Shown piece by piece: positions 3,174-39,618 of a stretch of DNA of 64,000 nt (position 1 is the stretch's first letter; each line of letters begins with the position of its first letter). Under the pieces are notes generated by a model. It was given only the letters and a program-made list of their open reading frames with translations, was not told the origin of the DNA and did no database searches. The stretch comes from a candidate division WWE3 bacterium GW2011_GWC2_41_23 (GTDB lineage: Bacteria > Patescibacteriota > WWE3 > UBA101185 > UBA10185). The stretch is taken from contig LCBB01000003.1 of NCBI GenBank assembly GCA_000996895.1, forward strand, positions 3,659-67,658, read 5' to 3'. The translations under genes were made by a program, and so were the position numbers.

Positions 3174-4108
3174 ACGAGATATCCGTTTTCAAACTCTTTC
3201 CACGACATCATTTTTTTCCCTTCAATTTGTAAATTATCAATCGAAATTTTATCTTTTTCCGGATGCGCGGAGTATATTTTGACCGCAAGCCCGCCGTCTA
3301 CGTGATCCCTGAACTTAATTTTTCCCTGTGAAAGACACCCGGCTTCCTGAATATCTTTCAGGTAAGTCCACGCAATAGGCCAGGGGTTAAACGCCCTAAT
3401 TTTTTGGTCGATGTTTTTTGTATCATTTTTCCAGTTAATAAGCCCGTCCTCTTTAAAAACGAAGGTATTGTGAGGATGAGTTCTGGAGAAGGTGTAAGTA
3501 GCGTTGTCTTCATCCTGGGGCATGGGCTTAATACTTCCTGAGCAGTACCCAAGAATAACATCAGGAAGTTTGTCGGCGGCAACGTGGAACAAAGTTTCGT
3601 AAAGTTCTCCCGACGTTTCGGTTTGGTTCATCTTATAACCTATCTGGCTAAGGATATCACCCGCATCCATACGTTTGCTAATAAGTTGATATGTAATTCC
3701 TGTTGTTTCGTCCCCGTTTAATATCGCGAATTGTACAGGGCTTGCTCCCCGGTATTTGGGTAGAAGAGAGAAGTGTATATTAGTCAATTTTCCGTCAAAA
3801 AATTTAATGATGTCTTCCGGAATCATGTAGCTGAAATCCGCGACTACTCCGTAGTCGGGCTTGTATTTGTGAAGGTCTTCTATCACCATTCGCAGGTCAT
3901 AATCTTTCAAGGACCTTATTTCCACATACCTGACACCCTGTTCCCGCGCCCACTTTTTAACCGCGGTTTCTCTTGTTTCGTGGTTTCTCCCCACTTTGGT
4001 ATCGCTTTTAGTAACACACAAAACCAGGCTAAACTCTTTGTGAAGACTCTCAAGTATGGGGAGCGACCTGTCCGAAGTTCCGAAAAACGCGACTTTTAAT
4101 TTTTTCAC
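3170..4108 (-). CDS. fmt: methionyl-tRNA formyltransferase
   Basis: KVAFFGTS..., SLLPKYRGASPVQFAILNGDETTGITY motifs. Overlaps the def stop, as in a def-fmt operon. Confidence 0.9.
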   Translation of the reverse strand: MKKLKVAFFGTSDRSLPILESLHKEFSLVLCVTKSDTKVGRNHETRETAVKKWAREQGVRYVEIRSLKDYDLRMVIEDLHKYKPDYGVVADFSYMIPEDIIKFFDGKLTNIHFSLLPKYRGASPVQFAILNGDETTGITYQLISKRMDAGDILSQIGYKMNQTETSGELYETLFHVAADKLPDVILGYCSGSIKPMPQDEDNATYTFSRTHPHNTFVFKEDGLINWKNDTKNIDQKIRAFNPWPIAWTYLKDIQEAGCLSQGKIKFRDHVDGGLAVKIYSAHPEKDKISIDNLQIEGKKMMSWKEFENGYLV

Positions 4109-4641
4109 TGCCCCTCCTGTGAAAATAAGGCGTCCATTTCCTGCTCGGTTATTACGCCCCCAACCACTCTGTCCGTAAACAAAACGCCCTCCAAGTGGTC
4201 TATTTCATGCTGAACTGTCCTTGCAAAAAAATCCTGAGCCTTAATTTTTATGCGTTCTCCCGAAATGTCCAGAGCATCTACTTTTATTTTTTTGTAGCGT
4301 TCTACCTTTCCGTAAACATTTGGGACGCTTAGGCACCCCTCGTAATCAATTTCGGTTTCTTTGGAGGTACTCACTATTTTAGGATTTATAAGTACGTAAT
4401 CTTCGTGTGTGTACTCGCCGTTTTTGGCGGGGTCGGGAAAAAAATTCCTTACAACACACATCTTTTTTGAAACCCCGATTTGTGTAGCGGCGATGCCGGC
4501 TCCCTCAGGGTCTTTTGCCACTTCTAAGGTATCCAGCAGGTCCCGAGCAAGCTTTTTTTCTTCTTCTCCGACCTTGCTTACCTTTTGAGCCTTGTTCCGT
4601 AACACGGGGTCAGGTATTGTAACTATTTGTCTGATTGCCAT
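4105..4641 (-). CDS. def: peptide deformylase
   Basis: GIAATQIG, EGCLSVP and HEIDHLEG motifs. Confidence 0.92.
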   Translation of the reverse strand: MAIRQIVTIPDPVLRNKAQKVSKVGEEEKKLARDLLDTLEVAKDPEGAGIAATQIGVSKKMCVVRNFFPDPAKNGEYTHEDYVLINPKIVSTSKETEIDYEGCLSVPNVYGKVERYKKIKVDALDISGERIKIKAQDFFARTVQHEIDHLEGVLFTDRVVGGVITEQEMDALFSQEGQ

Positions 4642-4737
4642 GCCTCATATTTTACCACTATTAAGGGATTTCTATGTGAGTGGGGCAGTTGAGCGTACGT
4701 GTTGTGTTATACTCGAAAATGTTACTCTAAGGTAAAT

Positions 4738-4836
4738 ATGAAACTTGTAATTGTTGAGTCGCCTACAAAAGCAAAGACGCTGTCCAAGATTTTACCTCAG
4801 TCTTACAGCATAAAGTGGTTTAGGTGTGGATGTTGA
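4738..4836 (+). other. topA: topA N-terminal fragment (MKLVIVESPTKAKTLSKIL...) in a different frame from the main topA ORF
   Basis: ATG at 4738 encodes the canonical topoisomerase I TOPRIM start, ending at TGA 4834-4836 in frame 1. The rest of topA is in frame 2. Confidence 0.6.
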
Positions 4837-6868
4837 AAAAGATTTTACCCTCACATACGAAGTCCCTTCCAAAGCAAAAAAAGTTTTGACAGATTTGAAA
4901 AAAACTGCGAAAGAGGCGGAGGAAATTGTTTTAGCAACTGATCCTGATAGGGAAGGGGAGGCGATTGCATGGCACCTGGAGGAGCTGTTGCGCGGAAAAA
5001 AAGACACAAGAGTTTTTTCACGCGTTGTTTTTCACGAACTAACTAAAGAAGCAATTAACGAAGCGTTTAAAAATCCCGGAAAAATAGATTTGGATTTGGT
5101 CGACGCCCAACAAGCACGCAGGGTGCTGGACAGATTAGTGGGCTACAAACTGTCCCCATTACTTTGGAAGAAAGTTATGTACGGGCTGTCGGCAGGCCGC
5201 GTTCAGAGCGTTGCTGTGCGGTTAGTTGTTGAACGTGAAAGGGAGCGGCAGGCATTTAACCCCGAGGAATACTGGGGGGTTTTGGGGGAATTTCAAAACG
5301 GCAGCAAAAAAAAGATTCGGGCCGAGCTTTCGGAGATAAACGGCAAGAAAGTTGAGATAAAAAACGGAGGACAGGCGGAAGAAATTAAAGCCGGGGCGTT
5401 AAAAGGAACTTATTCAGTCATCTCATTAAAAAAATCAGAGCGAAAAAAGAACCCATATCCCCCTTTCAAGACATCCACTCTCCAACAGGCAATGGCCAAT
5501 ATATATGGGTTTAACGCCAAAAAAACGATGCGGGCAGCACAGGGGTTGTTTGAGAAGGGGTACATCACCTACCACAGAACGGACTCACTGAGCCTTTCCC
5601 CGCACTTTATCAATACGGCGCGCGAACTGATAAAAAAACGCTTCGGAGAGACCTATTTGCCTGCTACCCCTAACCTATATAAGACAAAGTCAGCTAATGC
5701 TCAGGAGGCACACGAAGCAATTCGTCCTACTTCGGCACATGCAGTGCCATCAAAAAGTATAGGGTTGTCAGGAGATGAGTTTAAAACATACTCGATAATT
5801 TGGTTAAGGAGTTTAGAATGCCAGATGAATCCCTCCATATATGAACAGACATCTTTATCTATAGGTTCGGATGAGGGGTATATTTTTAAGGCTTCGGGAT
5901 CCACAGTGTTGTTCGAGGGGTGGTTGGCCGTCTCAAAAATGGTCGGAGTAAAAGAGGACGAAGAGGAAACCTCTAGTATTCTTCCGGAATTAGTCGAAGG
6001 AACCAAAATGAAGCTTCTGGAGATAAAAAATGAACAACATTTTACCCAACCTCCGGCGAGATACAACGACGCTTCTTTGATAAAAAAGATGGAGGAAATG
6101 GGAGTCGGACGACCTTCGACTTACGCGCCCACACTTTCCACCATTCAGGACCGCAAATATGTGTTACGTGACGGTAGATATTTTTACCCCAACGATGTTG
6201 CTTATGTGGTCGTTGACCTTTTAGTAGAGCACTTTCCGGAAATTGTCGATTATAACTTTACAGCCCTGATGGAGGAGAGTTTGGATAAGGTTGCGGAAGG
6301 AAAAGTACAGTGGGTTCCGGTAATACGCGAATTTTATAAACCTTTCGAAAAGAAAATACTCGCGAAAGACAAAGAACTAAATAAAAGGGATGTGACAAAT
6401 CTGGGTGACAGTGAAGAAAAATGTCCGGAATGCGGCCGTGTTCTGGTTTTTAAACTAGGCAAATTCGGCAAGTTTTTAAGCTGCTCGGGATACCCGGATT
6501 GCAAGTACGCCAAGCCTTTAGAACCACTAAACGGTGTCGGCGGGGAAGATGAAGATTTTGGAAAATGCGATAAATGCGAAGATGGAATAATGGTTTTGAA
6601 GCAGGGAAGATTCGGAAAGTTTTTAGCCTGCAGCAATTATCCGAAATGCAAGAATACTAAGCCGTTTTTGGATAAAATAGGAATGAAATGCCCGCAATGC
6701 GGGGAAGGCGAGGTAGTAAAGAAAAAGTCTAAGTGGAAAGAGTTTTACGGATGCAGCAGATACCCCGATTGCGACTGGAAGAGTTGGAAGAATCCGATGG
6801 TTGTGGCAAGTGGGAATGGGGAAGATAGCGAGAAAGAGAGTGGCGATTCAATTGACAGTTTAGTTTAA
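4826..6868 (+). CDS. topA: DNA topoisomerase I (main body; three C-terminal C4 zinc ribbons)
   Basis: DPDREGEAIAWHL, YITYHRTDS, and 3x CxxC...CxxC ribbons. The apparent 5' frameshift and small deletion are described under findings. Confidence 0.85.
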   Translation: MDVEKDFTLTYEVPSKAKKVLTDLKKTAKEAEEIVLATDPDREGEAIAWHLEELLRGKKDTRVFSRVVFHELTKEAINEAFKNPGKIDLDLVDAQQARRVLDRLVGYKLSPLLWKKVMYGLSAGRVQSVAVRLVVERERERQAFNPEEYWGVLGEFQNGSKKKIRAELSEINGKKVEIKNGGQAEEIKAGALKGTYSVISLKKSERKKNPYPPFKTSTLQQAMANIYGFNAKKTMRAAQGLFEKGYITYHRTDSLSLSPHFINTARELIKKRFGETYLPATPNLYKTKSANAQEAHEAIRPTSAHAVPSKSIGLSGDEFKTYSIIWLRSLECQMNPSIYEQTSLSIGSDEGYIFKASGSTVLFEGWLAVSKMVGVKEDEEETSSILPELVEGTKMKLLEIKNEQHFTQPPARYNDASLIKKMEEMGVGRPSTYAPTLSTIQDRKYVLRDGRYFYPNDVAYVVVDLLVEHFPEIVDYNFTALMEESLDKVAEGKVQWVPVIREFYKPFEKKILAKDKELNKRDVTNLGDSEEKCPECGRVLVFKLGKFGKFLSCSGYPDCKYAKPLEPLNGVGGEDEDFGKCDKCEDGIMVLKQGRFGKFLACSNYPKCKNTKPFLDKIGMKCPQCGEGEVVKKKSKWKEFYGCSRYPDCDWKSWKNPMVVASGNGEDSEKESGDSIDSLV

Positions 6869-6990: not shown

Positions 6991-7761
6991 ATGAACGCCA
7001 GAAACTTAAAAGGACTTTTGGTCCTGGTCTTGGTGGTTTCTTTAGTTGGTGGTTGTAGAGGATGCGATGTTATAAAGCCTACTGCTGTGTCAGTAGTGCC
7101 GTCGTCTACTCCAAAGCCTGTAGTACCCGCTGCAACCCAAACACCAACTGCAACCCAAACACCAACGGTCAAACCGACTGAAACCAACACACCGACGGTT
7201 ACGCAAACACTTGAACCGACGGTTGTTCCTACCGCGCTTTCGGCGGAGGGATACACATTCTTTGGAACCCAGCTTAAGTATTTGATTGATACTTCCGGTT
7301 GGGACTACAAGCCTTTGAATTGTGGGGCTGATGTATTTATAGGCGAAAGGAATGTGCTAATCGCAGAGTCGGGCGTCTGTCCCAGAATAATCGTTCCTGT
7401 TGCGGATAGAGCGGACGGGAGCTACCTAATTGAGGCAGAATATTGGTGGTTACCGTCGGATGGTACCAACAGCACGGCAGTACCTTTTGACCACAGATTC
7501 TATGTATACAAAGGAGACATGATAGACTCTGGGATATCCTGGCTGGATTTGGATGAATCCTCTACTATAGAGGCAATTGCAGGAGGGTATAATTTCGTTT
7601 GGGAAAAATCATTGGAAATCAGTGCTTCTATTGGAACGGAGGTGTTTCTTCCAAGCCCTGTGAAAATTTTCCCGCTCACTTCTGCAGAGTACCTATCGGT
7701 GATTTCTCGCCCGGATCTTTTTCCTCAGTATTTGGAATCTGCGGTTCAACCGAGAAAATAA
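6991..7761 (+). CDS. putative lipoprotein with Thr/Pro-rich low-complexity linker
   Basis: AGGAGG SD before ATG 6991. Signal peptide ends in the lipobox-like LVGGC. Contains TQTPTATQTPTVKPTETNTPTVTQT repeats. Confidence 0.6.
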   Translation: MNARNLKGLLVLVLVVSLVGGCRGCDVIKPTAVSVVPSSTPKPVVPAATQTPTATQTPTVKPTETNTPTVTQTLEPTVVPTALSAEGYTFFGTQLKYLIDTSGWDYKPLNCGADVFIGERNVLIAESGVCPRIIVPVADRADGSYLIEAEYWWLPSDGTNSTAVPFDHRFYVYKGDMIDSGISWLDLDESSTIEAIAGGYNFVWEKSLEISASIGTEVFLPSPVKIFPLTSAEYLSVISRPDLFPQYLESAVQPRK

Positions 7762-35851: not shown

Positions 35852-35938
35852 GCCGTGGTGGCGGAATGGTATACGCGGTGGTCTCAAAAACCACTGGGAT
35901 CTGATCCCGTGAGAGTTCGACTCTCTCCCACGGCACCA
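35852..35938 (+). tRNA. tRNA-Leu (anticodon CAA), long variable arm, CCA encoded
   Basis: GCCGTGG acceptor, anticodon stem GTGGT/ACCAC with loop CTCAAAA, a gggatctgatccc variable-arm hairpin, T-arm, then CCACGGC-A-CCA. Confidence 0.85.
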
Positions 35939-35966
35939 AAAATTATGAAACGGACAGCCTCTGCAG

Positions 35967-36458
35967 GTGATTAAATACGAGCACATAAAGGTCAGCCGGG
36001 GTAGTGCAAACGTCAAAGTCAGGGTCAAAAACCTTATCACCGGACAGGTTCTGGACAAAGGTTACATTGCTACGGCAAAAGTCGAGGATGCGGACGTTCA
36101 GACCAAAACTACCCAATATTTGTATAACGACGGGAGTTACATTTTTATGGATCCGGTAACTTTCGAGCAATTTAGTATCTCCGAAGATATTCTGGGTAAA
36201 GCCACAGATTTTTTAATAGAGGGCGAGAAGGCAATTGTTCAGTATTTCGACGGCCGACCAATCTCTGTAGATCTTCCGGCATCTCTCGTTTTCGAAGTTC
36301 AATATACAGAGCCCGGTTATAAGGGGAACACTGTGACTAATGTTCAAAAAGAGGCGACTCTTACAAACGGAACGGTGGTTAAAGTTCCCATATTTATAAA
36401 AATCGGGGATAAAATAAAGGTTGATACGCGTTCCGGAGAGTATATTTCTAAAGCCTAA
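35967..36458 (+). CDS. efp: elongation factor P (apparently lacking about 17 N-terminal residues; Arg-type KOW loop)
   Basis: IKYEHIKVSRGSANVKVRVKNLITG aligns to EF-P beta2-beta3. An in-frame stop at 35946 lies just after tRNA-Leu. Only GTG 35967 or non-canonical starts are available. Confidence 0.75.
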   Translation: MIKYEHIKVSRGSANVKVRVKNLITGQVLDKGYIATAKVEDADVQTKTTQYLYNDGSYIFMDPVTFEQFSISEDILGKATDFLIEGEKAIVQYFDGRPISVDLPASLVFEVQYTEPGYKGNTVTNVQKEATLTNGTVVKVPIFIKIGDKIKVDTRSGEYISKA

Positions 36459-36459
36459 T

Positions 36460-37464
36460 ATGCTGTTATCAGAAAATATTAATTTCGGCCTTGTGCGGGT
36501 TCCCACAATGTACCTTGTTCTGTCGATAGGTTTTGTATTTTGGATTTTTGTGATGTGGTACGAAGCCCGTAAAGACGGTTTTGACGACGAAAGATTTCTC
36601 GACCTTGTTGTTGTTTCCACACTGACCGCGGCTTTGTTTTATTATCTTTTCAGGCTGCTTTACACGTATATAAGTCTTTACAGGCCTAACAACCCGCTTT
36701 TATTAGTTAATTACGAGGTTATGGTAAGTTTTATTGCGCTCTTAGGTGCTTTCTTACCGCCGTTCTATTTTTCAAATAAAAGGCGCTGGTCTCTGTTTAG
36801 AATATTCGACATTTATTCCCTTGCTTTCGGATTTTTTCTTGTTTTTGTAAGCCTTGGAGGATATTTGATAACCGGTGAAATGAATCATTTATGGGTTGCT
36901 GCTTTGACGCTGGTCTTTTATCTGGGGGTGCTGAGATTTAGAGGATACAGATTTGTATCGGGGCTCGTTTTTTCCTTGTTTTCCTTTTACCTGGGTGTTG
37001 TAGTATTTGTATTTTTTAAATCCCCGGCTTATTTGCTCTTTTCGGGAGCATTGTTTATTATTGGTCTATCCAATTTGTATTACAGGAGTAAAAAATATAT
37101 GAACACAAGAAATTTACCAAAAGAATTTATAGAATTAATTAAGAAACAACTTGTCAGAAAAGAAAAAGAACTTCAGAAAGAGCAGGCAAGCCTTATCAAA
37201 GAAGATCCCTACCTCCAATCCGGAAGGACTGAATCAAATTCCGAGTATATGGACGAAGCTATCCTGGAGGATACTAGAAAATCCGTTGCCGACGCTCAGG
37301 CGAGTATCGTACAGACGATGCTGATAGAGGTAAAAAGAGCTTTGGCAGCAATAAAAATAGGCAAATACGGCATATGCCAGGTATGCGGCGAACCAATAGA
37401 CAAGGCCCGTCTCAGAGCATATCCGCAAGCTACCACTTGTCTAAAGCACGCCGACGGGGAGTAA
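36460..37464 (+). CDS. Lgt-like polytopic membrane domain fused to C-terminal DksA/TraR (YlyA-like) C4-type zinc finger
   Basis: The N-terminal 230 aa align loosely to prolipoprotein diacylglyceryl transferase (…KRRWSLFRIFDIYSLAFGFFLVFVSLGGYLITGE vs Lgt …[32 protein letters not shown]). C-terminus CQVCGEPIDKARLRAYPQATTCLKH is CxxC-x17-CxxH. Confidence 0.5.
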   Translation: MLLSENINFGLVRVPTMYLVLSIGFVFWIFVMWYEARKDGFDDERFLDLVVVSTLTAALFYYLFRLLYTYISLYRPNNPLLLVNYEVMVSFIALLGAFLPPFYFSNKRRWSLFRIFDIYSLAFGFFLVFVSLGGYLITGEMNHLWVAALTLVFYLGVLRFRGYRFVSGLVFSLFSFYLGVVVFVFFKSPAYLLFSGALFIIGLSNLYYRSKKYMNTRNLPKEFIELIKKQLVRKEKELQKEQASLIKEDPYLQSGRTESNSEYMDEAILEDTRKSVADAQASIVQTMLIEVKRALAAIKIGKYGICQVCGEPIDKARLRAYPQATTCLKHADGE

Positions 37465-37470
37465 CTTTCC

Positions 37471-37773
37471 GTGGGTTTTTTATCTGCACCGGTTAGCAAT
37501 TGTGAAATTTTTTATCCCCTTCAACTAAGTTTTGTGGTACTTGTGGGTGTTTTTTATTTGATTCGAAAAAAATACTTTGTTTCCCGTTTGTCCCGCCTGG
37601 GCATTATTTTTATATTATTAGGAGGAATTGGGAATACGTTGGAGCGCGTTTTCACAGGTTGTGTACGTGATTATGTGGACTTTTTCGGCCAATTCCGTTT
37701 TAACTTTTTTGACCTGTTAGTGACTTCGGGAGTCTTTCTGTTAATATACGAACTGTGGAAGAACAAAAAATAA
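37471..37773 (+). CDS. lspA: lipoprotein signal peptidase II, C-terminal two-thirds only (TM1 absent)
   Basis: LLGGIGNTLER, VRDYVDF, FNFFD motifs correspond to the LspA GGxxGNxxDR / VVDF / FNxAD blocks. GTG start lies 2 codons after the in-frame TAA of the previous ORF. Confidence 0.6.
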   Translation: MGFLSAPVSNCEIFYPLQLSFVVLVGVFYLIRKKYFVSRLSRLGIIFILLGGIGNTLERVFTGCVRDYVDFFGQFRFNFFDLLVTSGVFLLIYELWKNKK

Positions 37774-38499: not shown

Positions 38500-39618
38500 A
38501 TGAGATCTGTACCTGCCCAAAGGAAGGCTCCCATTCGTAATAGGAGTTCCTCCCGGACAACTAAAAATAAAGTTAATTCCGGAGCGGGTAAGAAAAAACT
38601 GATTAACAGAGGCACCCAGAAGTATTTTTCACAAATGGCATTAGGCGGGCTGATTTTTTTCTCCGCCTTTATTTTTTTGGCGGGGTATTCCATCTATAAA
38701 TATTTAAACCAGGCGTTTGCTTCGGCATCCTCAGCAGATTCCTATGCCATCTCTGACAGCAGTATAGTTACTCTGTCTTTTATTGAAGTCGAAAATGTAA
38801 ACGCCGACCCTGTCATCCTAAAAGGTTTAAAGTATATTGTTTTTGACAAAAATGATGAAAAGGTAAGTGTTTTTGACATCCCGCTCGACATCAAGGTAGA
38901 CATGACCGGAAAGTTCGGAGAAGAGGAGATTTCAAAGGTTTTTGCTCTCGGGGCACTAAATTCCACTAACGTGACGGTAGACGGTATAAAATCGGTAAAT
39001 AATACGATAATGAGGATTTTTGGGTTTTCCATAGACAGGTACATTTTGGTCAACGAGGACTTAGCCGAAACGTTGCTGAATTCTTTCAGCGGGAAAGGAC
39101 TATCGGAAATATTAAATCTTCAGGTAGCTTCGGATTTAAAAAAATTCACAATAAGCAATTTAACAATCAGCGAATATTACTCCTTGGTTAATTTTTCGGG
39201 CGGTTTAGCAAAAGATAAGATAGCTATGTATTCAATCACACAAGAGGATATAAACGACAGCGGGAACCTGGACAGCCAGATTGCTGATATGAATTTTGAC
39301 GGGGATATATCGCGCGAAGAATTGAGTGTCGCAATTCTTAACGGCACAGATTATCCCGGGGTGGCTATGTTTGGGTCGAGATTGGTAACTAACTCCGGTG
39401 GTAGGGTAGTGGCGGTTTCAAACGCAGCGTCGAGATACGAGACAAGTTATATCGCTACGGATATCCGCGATTCTGCCACGTTGAGCTATTTAAGCCGGGT
39501 TTTAGGTATCCGAAACATTATTTCCAAACAAGAAGCCCAAAAATTCAATGAAAACGAGGTTGATAGGTCCGAAATCACTGTAATAGTGGGATTTGACACT
39601 GCCGACTCTTTGTACTAA
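38500..39618 (+). CDS. LytR-CpsA-Psr (LCP) family-like membrane-anchored protein
   Basis: N-terminal TM; DIPLDIKVDM...IDRYILVNEDL block resembles the LCP core. Confidence 0.45.
   Translation: MRSVPAQRKAPIRNRSSSRTTKNKVNSGAGKKKLINRGTQKYFSQMALGGLIFFSAFIFLAGYSIYKYLNQAFASASSADSYAISDSSIVTLSFIEVENVNADPVILKGLKYIVFDKNDEKVSVFDIPLDIKVDMTGKFGEEEISKVFALGALNSTNVTVDGIKSVNNTIMRIFGFSIDRYILVNEDLAETLLNSFSGKGLSEILNLQVASDLKKFTISNLTISEYYSLVNFSGGLAKDKIAMYSITQEDINDSGNLDSQIADMNFDGDISREELSVAILNGTDYPGVAMFGSRLVTNSGGRVVAVSNAASRYETSYIATDIRDSATLSYLSRVLGIRNIISKQEAQKFNENEVDRSEITVIVGFDTADSLY

Follow-up and report, generated by a model that had tools for sequence, protein, structure and literature searches.

What does a lipoprotein maturation locus encode when its first gene resembles an Lgt joined to a zinc finger, its second resembles an LspA that has lost its front part, and the two are so close that they might be one? 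The locus in question lies on contig LCBB01000003.1 (GCA_000996895.1) of a candidate division WWE3 bacterium, of which a stretch of 64 kb was analyzed. This whole stretch is called the window here, and all coordinates are window positions on the + strand. The two genes are open reading frame 1 (ORF1), with a membrane domain related to prolipoprotein diacylglyceryl transferase (Lgt) followed by a coiled coil and a DksA/TraR-type zinc finger, and ORF2, which encodes a short form of signal peptidase II (LspA). The reading favored here, with a probability of about 60%, is that in ORF1 a pseudo-Lgt anchor holds a DksA-like factor at the membrane, and that translation of this gene is coupled to that of a minimal signal peptidase II; this function is one that we infer. 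An initial annotation, made from the nucleotide sequence, had assigned the same domains, with rluD as the next gene, and had called the locus unusual for lipoprotein maturation; on these points it holds.

The homology of the ORF1 N-terminal domain to Lgt is established because three independent lines of evidence lead to it. Direct comparison finds a loosely alignable domain, as the initial annotation had put it. The NCBIfam Lgt model NF000778 matches amino acids (aa) 10–136 with 22 bits (E = 8.7e-5; cutoff 334), Pfam PF01790 has no match to ORF1 of the window at E ≤ 1, and only one of 35 family members is matched by Pfam LGT (P0045, 1.3e-8). ORF1 has 46 full-length homologues, with identities down to 33%. 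Among PDB sequences, a profile of the whole family (alignment A1) matches DksA/TraR chains only; Lgt is missing even with the limit relaxed to E ≤ 10. With hhalign, A1 against one approximate E. coli Lgt sequence gave a weak match (E = 0.012, probability 3.7%), in a register that agrees with the later alignments. The first of the three lines is structural. The AlphaFold2 model, for which 35 homologues were used (predicted local distance difference test, pLDDT, 82), displays an N-terminal beta-hairpin and seven transmembrane (TM) helices, followed by a pair of long helices and a zinc ribbon. Its top PDB match by Foldseek is E. coli Lgt, 5azb (E = 9.5e-4, probability 1.00, TM-score 0.52 target-normalised), and DksA structures rank next. 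The second line is a profile of the N-terminal domain only, searched against 1.84 billion representative proteins. Beyond its own family it found proteins of 250–300 aa at about 1e-16 to 1e-8 (P0126, 2.2e-16; P0156, 4.9e-8), and these match Pfam LGT with E values from 3e-26 to 8e-53. The third is a small custom hidden Markov model (HMM) made from the Patescibacteria Lgts found in this way and E. coli Lgt, which gives ORF1 70 bits and has no other match in the window.

ORF1 thus far resembles Lgt (PF01790, 5AZB) in its 7-TM body, its N-terminal beta-hairpin and its modeled topology, with the N-terminus outside and the C-terminus inside. The Patescibacteria Lgts share with it the cytoplasmic-face motifs W..E.RKDGF..E..D and KW..YR..D, the latter including the equivalent of D129, and ORF1 is found at the genomic position of lgt in related Patescibacteria. 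It differs in that the body is shorter, about 216 aa compared with about 260–300, falls below the Pfam and NCBIfam thresholds and has a DksA-like domain fused at its C-terminus.

A further difference is in the active site. In E. coli Lgt, residues Y26, H103, R143, N146, G154 and R239 are absolutely required, and E151A/Q as well as E243 and R246 substitutions are also non-complementing (PMC4728403; PMC13251419). The family was aligned with Patescibacteria Lgts and E. coli Lgt, and about 65 related loci were aligned to the Lgt HMM. The alignments bear out the earlier observation that catalytic residues are substituted. Y26, H103, R143, N146, E151, G154, Y235, R239 and E243 are absent from the window and from the approximately 65 related loci, and the H103-G-G of the H103GGL motif and R246 are likewise missing from the family, being either substituted or deleted. 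The Lgt signature G142-R143-L-G-N146-F-I-N-G-E151-L-W-G154 is not present in this family; in the window, S, G and G are aligned to R143, N146 and E151 and there is a gap at G154. R143 and N146 are not found together in any related locus. The extracytoplasmic head domain between TM4 and TM5, approximately 45–60 residues that include HPxQLYE, is deleted in the window and in these loci, and the AlphaFold2 model has a TM4–TM5 loop of about 5 residues in its place. Among the key residues of Lgt only the D129 equivalent (D117) is retained. The comparison shows that the Lgt moiety has kept the 7-TM body and has lost the head together with every residue that diacylglyceryl transfer is known to require.

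What ORF1 does conserve is on the other side of the membrane. Residues F30, W33, E35, G40, F41, D48, W110, S111, R114, D117, G168 and R209 are invariant in the family, and by the positive-inside rule and the known Lgt topology they should all be situated in cytoplasmic loops. It is therefore the cytoplasmic face that is preserved and not the outer-leaflet active site. The ratio of non-synonymous to synonymous substitution rates (dN/dS) is 0.03–0.07, which signifies strong purifying selection, with the caveat that synonymous sites are saturated. From its residues, the Lgt body would no longer lipidate proteins by the canonical route.

Lgt homologues without R143 and R239 have been described from Deinococci, Anaerolineales, Myxococcales and others, and an alternative mechanism was suggested for them (Legood et al. 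2026; PMC13251419). They are similar to ORF1 in being related to PF01790 and in having lost residues considered essential. They differ in that they are described as stand-alone proteins, with neither loss of the head domain nor a DksA fusion mentioned (PMC13251419). Neither the Candidate Phyla Radiation (CPR) nor Patescibacteria are named in the text of that paper. A related observation comes from stand-alone PF01790 proteins of Patescibacteria (P0139, P0140, P0150, P0156, P0164, P0168, P0171 and P0173). Many such proteins pass the Pfam LGT threshold and yet are without R143, N146, E151 or R239, with the head-domain HP.QLYE kept. P0126 from Woykebacteria is a near-canonical Lgt with K143, S146, D151, R239, E243, H103 and Y26. 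Across the Patescibacteria superphylum, the Lgt motif may thus be widely eroded.

The C-terminal part of ORF1 has the properties of a complete DksA-like module. Pfam zf-dskA_traR matches aa 301–328 with E = 1.9e-10 (41 bits; cutoff 24.9), in agreement with the finger assigned initially. The DksA equivalogs TIGR02420 and NF033459 and the yteA model TIGR02890 score 38–51 bits, below their cutoffs of 105–134. The coiled coil and finger together have fold and profile matches to the DksA structures 4ijj, 6ptg, 7khi and 1tjl. The acidic tip loop between the two coiled-coil helices reads EDPYLQSGRTESNSEYMDEAILED. It is the most conserved stretch of ORF1, and D249, P250, Y251, R256, N260, D265, E266, E270 and D271 are invariant in it. 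An acidic-tip motif EDP[FY]...R...N is common to the fused domain and to the stand-alone DksA-like proteins of Patescibacteria that are encoded between lgt and lspA. In the conserved S-E-x-M-D-E-A-I-L-E-D, D265 is 41 residues before C306; we take D74 of the E. coli DksA motif D74-x-A76 to be 40 residues before C114. The spacing between D-E-A and finger thus agrees with that of E. coli DksA, in a part of the alignment that is ambiguous. The domain has in common with DksA/TraR proteins (PF01258, including the small YlyA/DksA-like proteins beside lspA) the two-helix coiled coil with a putative acidic tip and the CxxC...CxxC/H ribbon. With the lspA-linked DksA-like proteins of Chlamydia, Actinomycetota and Patescibacteria it also shares a gene position immediately upstream of lspA. 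There are differences: the tip loop of E. coli DksA is shorter than that of ORF1, and the last finger ligand in the window is His (C3H), while most relatives are C4. The domain is also the C-terminal part of a 7-TM protein and not a soluble protein, and any contact with RNA polymerase would therefore occur at the membrane.

ORF2 represents the C-terminal two-thirds of LspA, as was initially annotated. Pfam Peptidase_A8 matches it with E = 5.6e-14 (53 bits; cutoff 25) over profile positions 56–141 of 142; the TIGR00077 equivalog gives 39.1 bits, under its cutoff of 73.95. The blocks GNTLER, VRD/VDF and FNFFD are present, TM1 is missing, and the N-x-G-x-A-F block is degenerate, being reduced to N10-C11; the presence of the three blocks and the lack or degeneration of TM1 and of the N-x-G-x-A-F block had been read from the sequence at the outset. 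Alignment to the LspA of S. aureus (6ryo) and P. aeruginosa (5dir) places D67 (codon 37669–37671) and D81 (codon 37711–37713) on the catalytic Asp residues of VVD and FN.AD. An AlphaFold2 model built with database proteins (pLDDT 74) reveals three TM helices that correspond to TM2–TM4 of LspA, and LspA structures are its sole PDB matches (6ryp, TM-score 0.74 query-normalised; 5dir). There is no TM1 hidden upstream because the zinc finger of ORF1 ends 9 nt before the start of ORF2. Only deeper relatives, L001 and L050 among them, have a TM1 with the D..K motif.

Conservation was counted over 66 related loci. The catalytic residues D67 and D81 are present in 66 and 65 of these, respectively, followed by N78 (64), G51 (63), N10, the Asn of the N-x-G-x-A-F block (62), V65 (62), N55 (59) and R59 (50). 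C11 (codon 37501–37503) and C64 (codon 37660–37662) occur together in 53 of the 66, and the nine sequences without C64 are all without C11 too. Both are on the predicted outer side, and an extracytoplasmic C11–C64 disulfide, mainly in the TM1-less forms, is possible. The N-terminus of ORF2 should be outside, with the loop R32–R42 (charge +5) and the C-terminal KNKK as the cytoplasmic parts. Compared with LspA (PF01252; 5DIR, 6RYO/6RYP), ORF2 has the same TM2–TM4 core, Asp dyad and GxGN..(D/E)R, V.D and FN..D blocks, and a rluD gene follows in both. It is different in having 100 aa where LspA has about 150–170, in lacking most of the beta-cradle and all of TM1, where LspA has a conserved Asp and Lys, in having only N10 of the N-x-G block, in a loop between the two Asp that is shortened to 14 residues, and in the gain of the C11/C64 pair. 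The dN/dS of 0.13–0.31 signifies purifying selection. Since the Asp dyad is conserved and the dN/dS is in this range, ORF2 is maintained as a minimal LspA and not as a pseudogene, and its sequence predicts that it is probably active. The suggestion that lspA is truncated or inactive is thus correct for the truncation and not supported for the inactivity.

The same results bear on the idea that both genes are functionless, decaying relics of a lipoprotein pathway abandoned in a reduced genome. The losses of Lgt catalytic residues, head domain and LspA TM1 would be expected of relics, and neighboring genes have N-terminal losses too (an RluD without S4 and an apparently 5'-truncated efp). However, the frames are intact across about 53–66 species, although synonymous sites are saturated at these distances, the dN/dS values given above for ORF1 and ORF2 are low, and the invariant residues are maintained. 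Decay is a highly improbable explanation.

The junction had been described correctly as a single TAA (37462–37464) followed by two sense codons (ctt tcc) and a GTG at 37471 in the same frame. Two possibilities were raised from this: that the stop is a sequencing or assembly error, or that it is read through, giving one Lgt-like/DksA/LspA polyprotein. The shared frame and a spacing of 3–12 nt in the window and its closest relatives would fit such a product. When one genome was scanned for each GTDB species, 79 loci were obtained, and in 53 of these, all from WWE3-type Patescibacteria and representing approximately 53 species, a fused ORF1 is directly followed by an LspA-like ORF. ORF1 ends in TAA, TAG or TGA at every one of the 53. 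The LspA-like ORF is in frame 0, +1 or +2 relative to ORF1 in 16, 19 and 18 loci, and the two ORFs overlap in 32. As the three frames are about equally common, the in-frame arrangement of the window is neutral, and it is shared with the closest relatives. Identical proteins, which public records name as candidate division WWE3, are known from 15 contigs for ORF1 and from 41 for ORF2, which argues against an error.

The signals for a separate start of ORF2 are also conserved. In the window, GGGGAG is 9 nt upstream of the GTG; in many relatives purine-rich hexamers similar to GGAG or GAGGA are found just 5' of the ORF1 stop, and the ATG/GTG starts are conserved. A fusion with ORF2 would furthermore be topologically wrong. 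The finger is expected to be cytoplasmic, but N10 and C11 of ORF2 would have to be outside if the Asp dyad is to be at the outer leaflet, as the charge of R32–R42, the KNKK and the LspA structures indicate. Neither an error nor read-through has more than a negligible chance of being correct, and these data show that ORF1 and ORF2 are two separate genes, probably with coupled translation.

The origin of the locus can be followed in its relatives. Woykebacteria locus L083 and Patescibacteria locus L085 have three genes, which encode LGT (290–304 aa), zf-dskA_traR (111–121 aa) and Peptidase_A8 (127–142 aa) proteins. The L085 trio is in a window-like neighborhood, MBL-DnaB-EF-P ... RluD-LytR. Because the separate trio is at the same locus, ORF1 is the positional descendant of lgt and a dksA-like gene, and this shows that it arose by fusion of lgt with the small DksA/TraR-type gene that follows it. 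The locus is the form that an old operon with the order lgt - dksA/ylyA-like - lspA - rluD has in WWE3 (Katanobacteria-type Patescibacteria). It had been proposed that separate, full-length lgt, ylyA-like and lspA genes in relatives, with indels in this assembly, would overturn the initial interpretation. Such genes do exist, but in distant Patescibacteria only, and the assembly part of the proposal finds no support; the state seen in the window is therefore derived and lineage-wide, not an assembly indel.

The degenerate-Lgt clade has every combination of these states. L068–L077 have unfused genes and a near-full-length LspA, L001 and L050 have fused genes and a full-length LspA with the TM1 D..K motif, and L059, L060 and L064 have unfused genes with a short LspA. 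Fused genes with a short LspA are the majority, the LspA being ≤125 aa in 44 of the 53 fused loci. That the fusion compensates for the loss of LspA TM1 was considered and rejected, as L001 and L050 combine the fusion with a full-length LspA and L059, L060 and L064 combine separate genes with a short one. In L058, L061, L063 and L072 the pseudo-Lgt and the DksA-like gene are adjacent and there is no LspA-like ORF at the locus. The constant element of the clade is the pairing of an Lgt body with a DksA-like protein. At these four loci (approximately positions 3900–5400 of each) separate, overlapping ORFs encode a pseudo-Lgt of about 210 aa and a DksA-like protein of about 125 aa, and a response-regulator receiver gene fills the place of LspA, before RluD and LytR.

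Adjacency of dksA-like genes and lspA extends beyond this group. It is present in Actinomycetota loci, and a nrdR-dksA-lspA operon has been published for Chlamydia (PMC9126822). In the Bacillales loci L079 and L082, which were found via the finger motif, no LspA is directly downstream, and they are thus no example of a ylyA-lspA pair. The DksA/TraR-type protein 5' of the full-length lspA in Actinomycetota L078, L080 and L081 has a long N-terminal Ala/Pro/Lys-rich repeat (AAPAKAAPVKK...), which is another lineage-specific elaboration of an lspA-linked DksA-like protein.

The main rival interpretation of the locus is that it encodes a complete lipoprotein pathway, in which the head-less Lgt transfers lipid non-canonically or from a host-derived donor, the mini-LspA cleaves, and the DksA-like domain is accessory or regulatory. 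Several observations fit. ORF1 is the positional orthologue of lgt and is under strong purifying selection, the catalytic and core residues of LspA are strictly retained, and the deeper branches L001 and L050 pair a degenerate Lgt body with a full-length LspA having the D..K of TM1. No other Lgt or LspA homologue was found in the window or in the fetched loci. Of 20 Lgt-type clusters from the matches of the N-terminal domain profile, none is labelled WWE3; the labels include Woykebacteria, Saccharimonadales and 'Patescibacteria group'. For Lgt homologues elsewhere that lack R143 and R239 another mechanism has been proposed (PMC13251419), and there is a candidate substrate in the window. The ORF at 6991–7761, cited in the initial annotation as a lipobox protein, does begin with a lipobox-like sequence: its start is MNARNLKGLLVLVLVVSLVGGCRGC, with the lipobox-like MNARNLKGLLVLVLVVSLVGGC. 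Its sole match in metagenome contigs is an identical copy. Against a complete pathway, the residues of the Lgt central cavity and head are all gone or variable, the invariant residues are placed at the cytoplasmic face by the positive-inside rule while lipidation takes place at the outer leaflet, and one sub-clade keeps the pseudo-Lgt and DksA-like pair without an LspA at the locus. This interpretation is considered rather unlikely.

Some observations weigh against a tethered DksA-like factor as the favored reading. The invariant charged cluster on the cytoplasmic side could be a catalytic or ligand site and not a docking surface. If there is no second lgt, a catalytically complete LspA argues that some lipidation persists, and by analogy with the homologues of PMC13251419 the degenerate Lgt body might work through a different mechanism. 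The ORF at 6991–7761 is the only one in the window that fits a simple lipobox signal-peptide pattern. With respect to the DksA-like domain, the DxxDxA tip aligns ambiguously in MAFFT and the window has ExxDEA, and RNA polymerase binding by the tethered domain would be expected from family resemblance only.

The mechanism suggested for a membrane-tethered DksA-like factor is as follows. The Lgt body would serve as a membrane anchor or sensor platform that holds the DksA-like module, with its acidic-tip coiled coil and zinc ribbon, at the inner face of the membrane. The module could engage the secondary channel of RNA polymerase there, and transcription would in this way be coupled to membrane or envelope state. 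A ribosome stopping at the TAA at 37462 may re-initiate at the GTG at 37471 via the GGGGAG in the end of ORF1. The product of ORF2, 100 aa with the N-terminus out and three TM helices, would probably still function as an aspartyl signal peptidase whose substrate clamp is reduced, with the C11–C64 disulfide as a possible brace.

The coupling of a tethered, transcription-factor-like domain with an intramembrane aspartyl peptidase, together with the widely conserved adjacency of dksA-like genes and lspA, could also suggest a regulated-proteolysis switch, in which the mini-LspA cleaves the pseudo-Lgt anchor or a partner and so releases or activates the DksA-like factor. The geometry is unfavorable, since the active site of LspA is at the outer leaflet and the tether from TM7 to the coiled coil is cytoplasmic. 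ORF1 also has no conserved lipobox-like site, one sub-clade has retained the pair of pseudo-Lgt and DksA-like protein in the absence of LspA, and the fusion is found alongside full-length LspA as well. A switch of this type is very unlikely.

A broader proposal treats the fusion as a 'Rosetta stone' for the small DksA/TraR proteins that are linked to lspA or lgt in many phyla, i.e., Bacillus YlyA, Chlamydia DksA and those of Actinomycetota and Patescibacteria. Their physical docking site would be the cytoplasmic face of Lgt, and the WWE3 fusion would be a one-polypeptide transmembrane signalling device, in which a dead Lgt body senses the lipid or prolipoprotein load and signals to the RNA polymerase secondary channel, beside the smallest known active signal peptidase II, with three TM helices and no TM1. 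It is a speculative extension, and we regard it as doubtful.

The features of the locus are listed in Table 1. All genes from tRNA-Leu(CAA) to the LytR-type gene are on the same strand and tightly packed. Only 1 nt separates the efp stop from the ATG of ORF1, and ORF2 overlaps the pseudouridine synthase gene by 19 nt.

Table 1. Features of the ORF1–ORF2 locus and adjoining genes (window positions).
Feature	Positions	Strand	Basis
tRNA-Leu(CAA)	35852-35938		
efp (elongation factor P)	35967..36458	+	Pfam EFP_N, EFP, Elong-fact-P_C
ORF1, 334 aa, ATG 36460, TAA included	36460..37464	+	Lgt-derived 7-TM body with DksA/YlyA-type coiled coil and zinc finger
Lgt-fold membrane body, aa 1-216	36460..37107	+	AlphaFold2, Foldseek, profile matches, residue comparison
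Antiparallel coiled coil, helices aa 221-247 and 265-297	37120..37350	+	AlphaFold2; matches to DksA structures
DksA/TraR zinc finger, C306-x2-C309-x17-C327-x2-H330	37360..37449	+	Pfam PF01258
GGGGAG, Shine-Dalgarno-like hexamer in last ORF1 codons	37456..37461	+	Sequence; similar hexamers in many relatives
TAA stop of ORF1	37462..37464	+	Stop at ORF1 end in every related locus
ORF2, mini-LspA, 100 aa, GTG start	37471..37773	+	Pfam Peptidase_A8; alignment to 6ryo/5dir; AlphaFold2
RluA/RluD-type pseudouridine synthase, 242 aa	37755..38483	+	Pfam PseudoU_synth_2, E = 2e-31
LytR-type protein	38500-39618		

Two of the neighboring genes have features of their own. The RluD-like synthase aligns to positions 69–289 of 298 in TIGR00005, and the N-terminal S4 RNA-binding domain is missing; the Woykebacteria homologue is 298 aa and has both S4 and PseudoU_synth_2. 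This is a second loss of an N-terminal domain, adjoining the TM1-less LspA. The other gene is efp. The elongation factor P of relatives opens with MIATDLKTGRIYQENGQPLQVIKYEH, immediately 3' of tRNA-Leu(CAA). In the window (35940–35970) the ATG at 35945 opens a different frame (MKRTASAGD*). This would fit a deletion of about 41 nt, i.e., codons 2–14 with a frameshift, and the longest in-frame ORF, from the GTG at 35967, is 163 aa compared with about 185 in relatives. The 5' end of efp is either truly truncated or reflects a local assembly error.

A search of the full-text literature did not find an Lgt-DksA fusion, a TM1-less LspA or a CPR lipoprotein pathway described, and lipoproteins are not mentioned in the main text of Kantor 2013. 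Database names of these proteins are generic ('TraR/DksA family', 'hypothetical' and one 'Lgt family protein').

Lgt is pursued as an antibiotic target, and to our knowledge descriptions of it hold that every bacterium has the enzyme and that its catalytic motif does not vary. A conserved pseudo-Lgt contradicts the invariance of the motif. Here, in a lineage at the level of a candidate phylum, the gene orthologous to lgt by position encodes a membrane body without head domain or motif, joined to a DksA-type domain, and ORF1 would be either a pseudoenzyme in the role of anchor or sensor or a transferase whose chemistry is different. With the fusion, the long-noticed, unexplained adjacency of dksA/ylyA-like genes and lspA in different phyla gains a concrete explanation that can be tested. 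The 100-aa LspA has lost TM1 and most of the beta-cradle with its catalytic core still under selection, and it may represent a natural minimal scaffold of signal peptidase II. As far as we know, the ultra-small CPR bacteria have no lipid synthesis of their own, and this locus bears on whether they still make lipoproteins.

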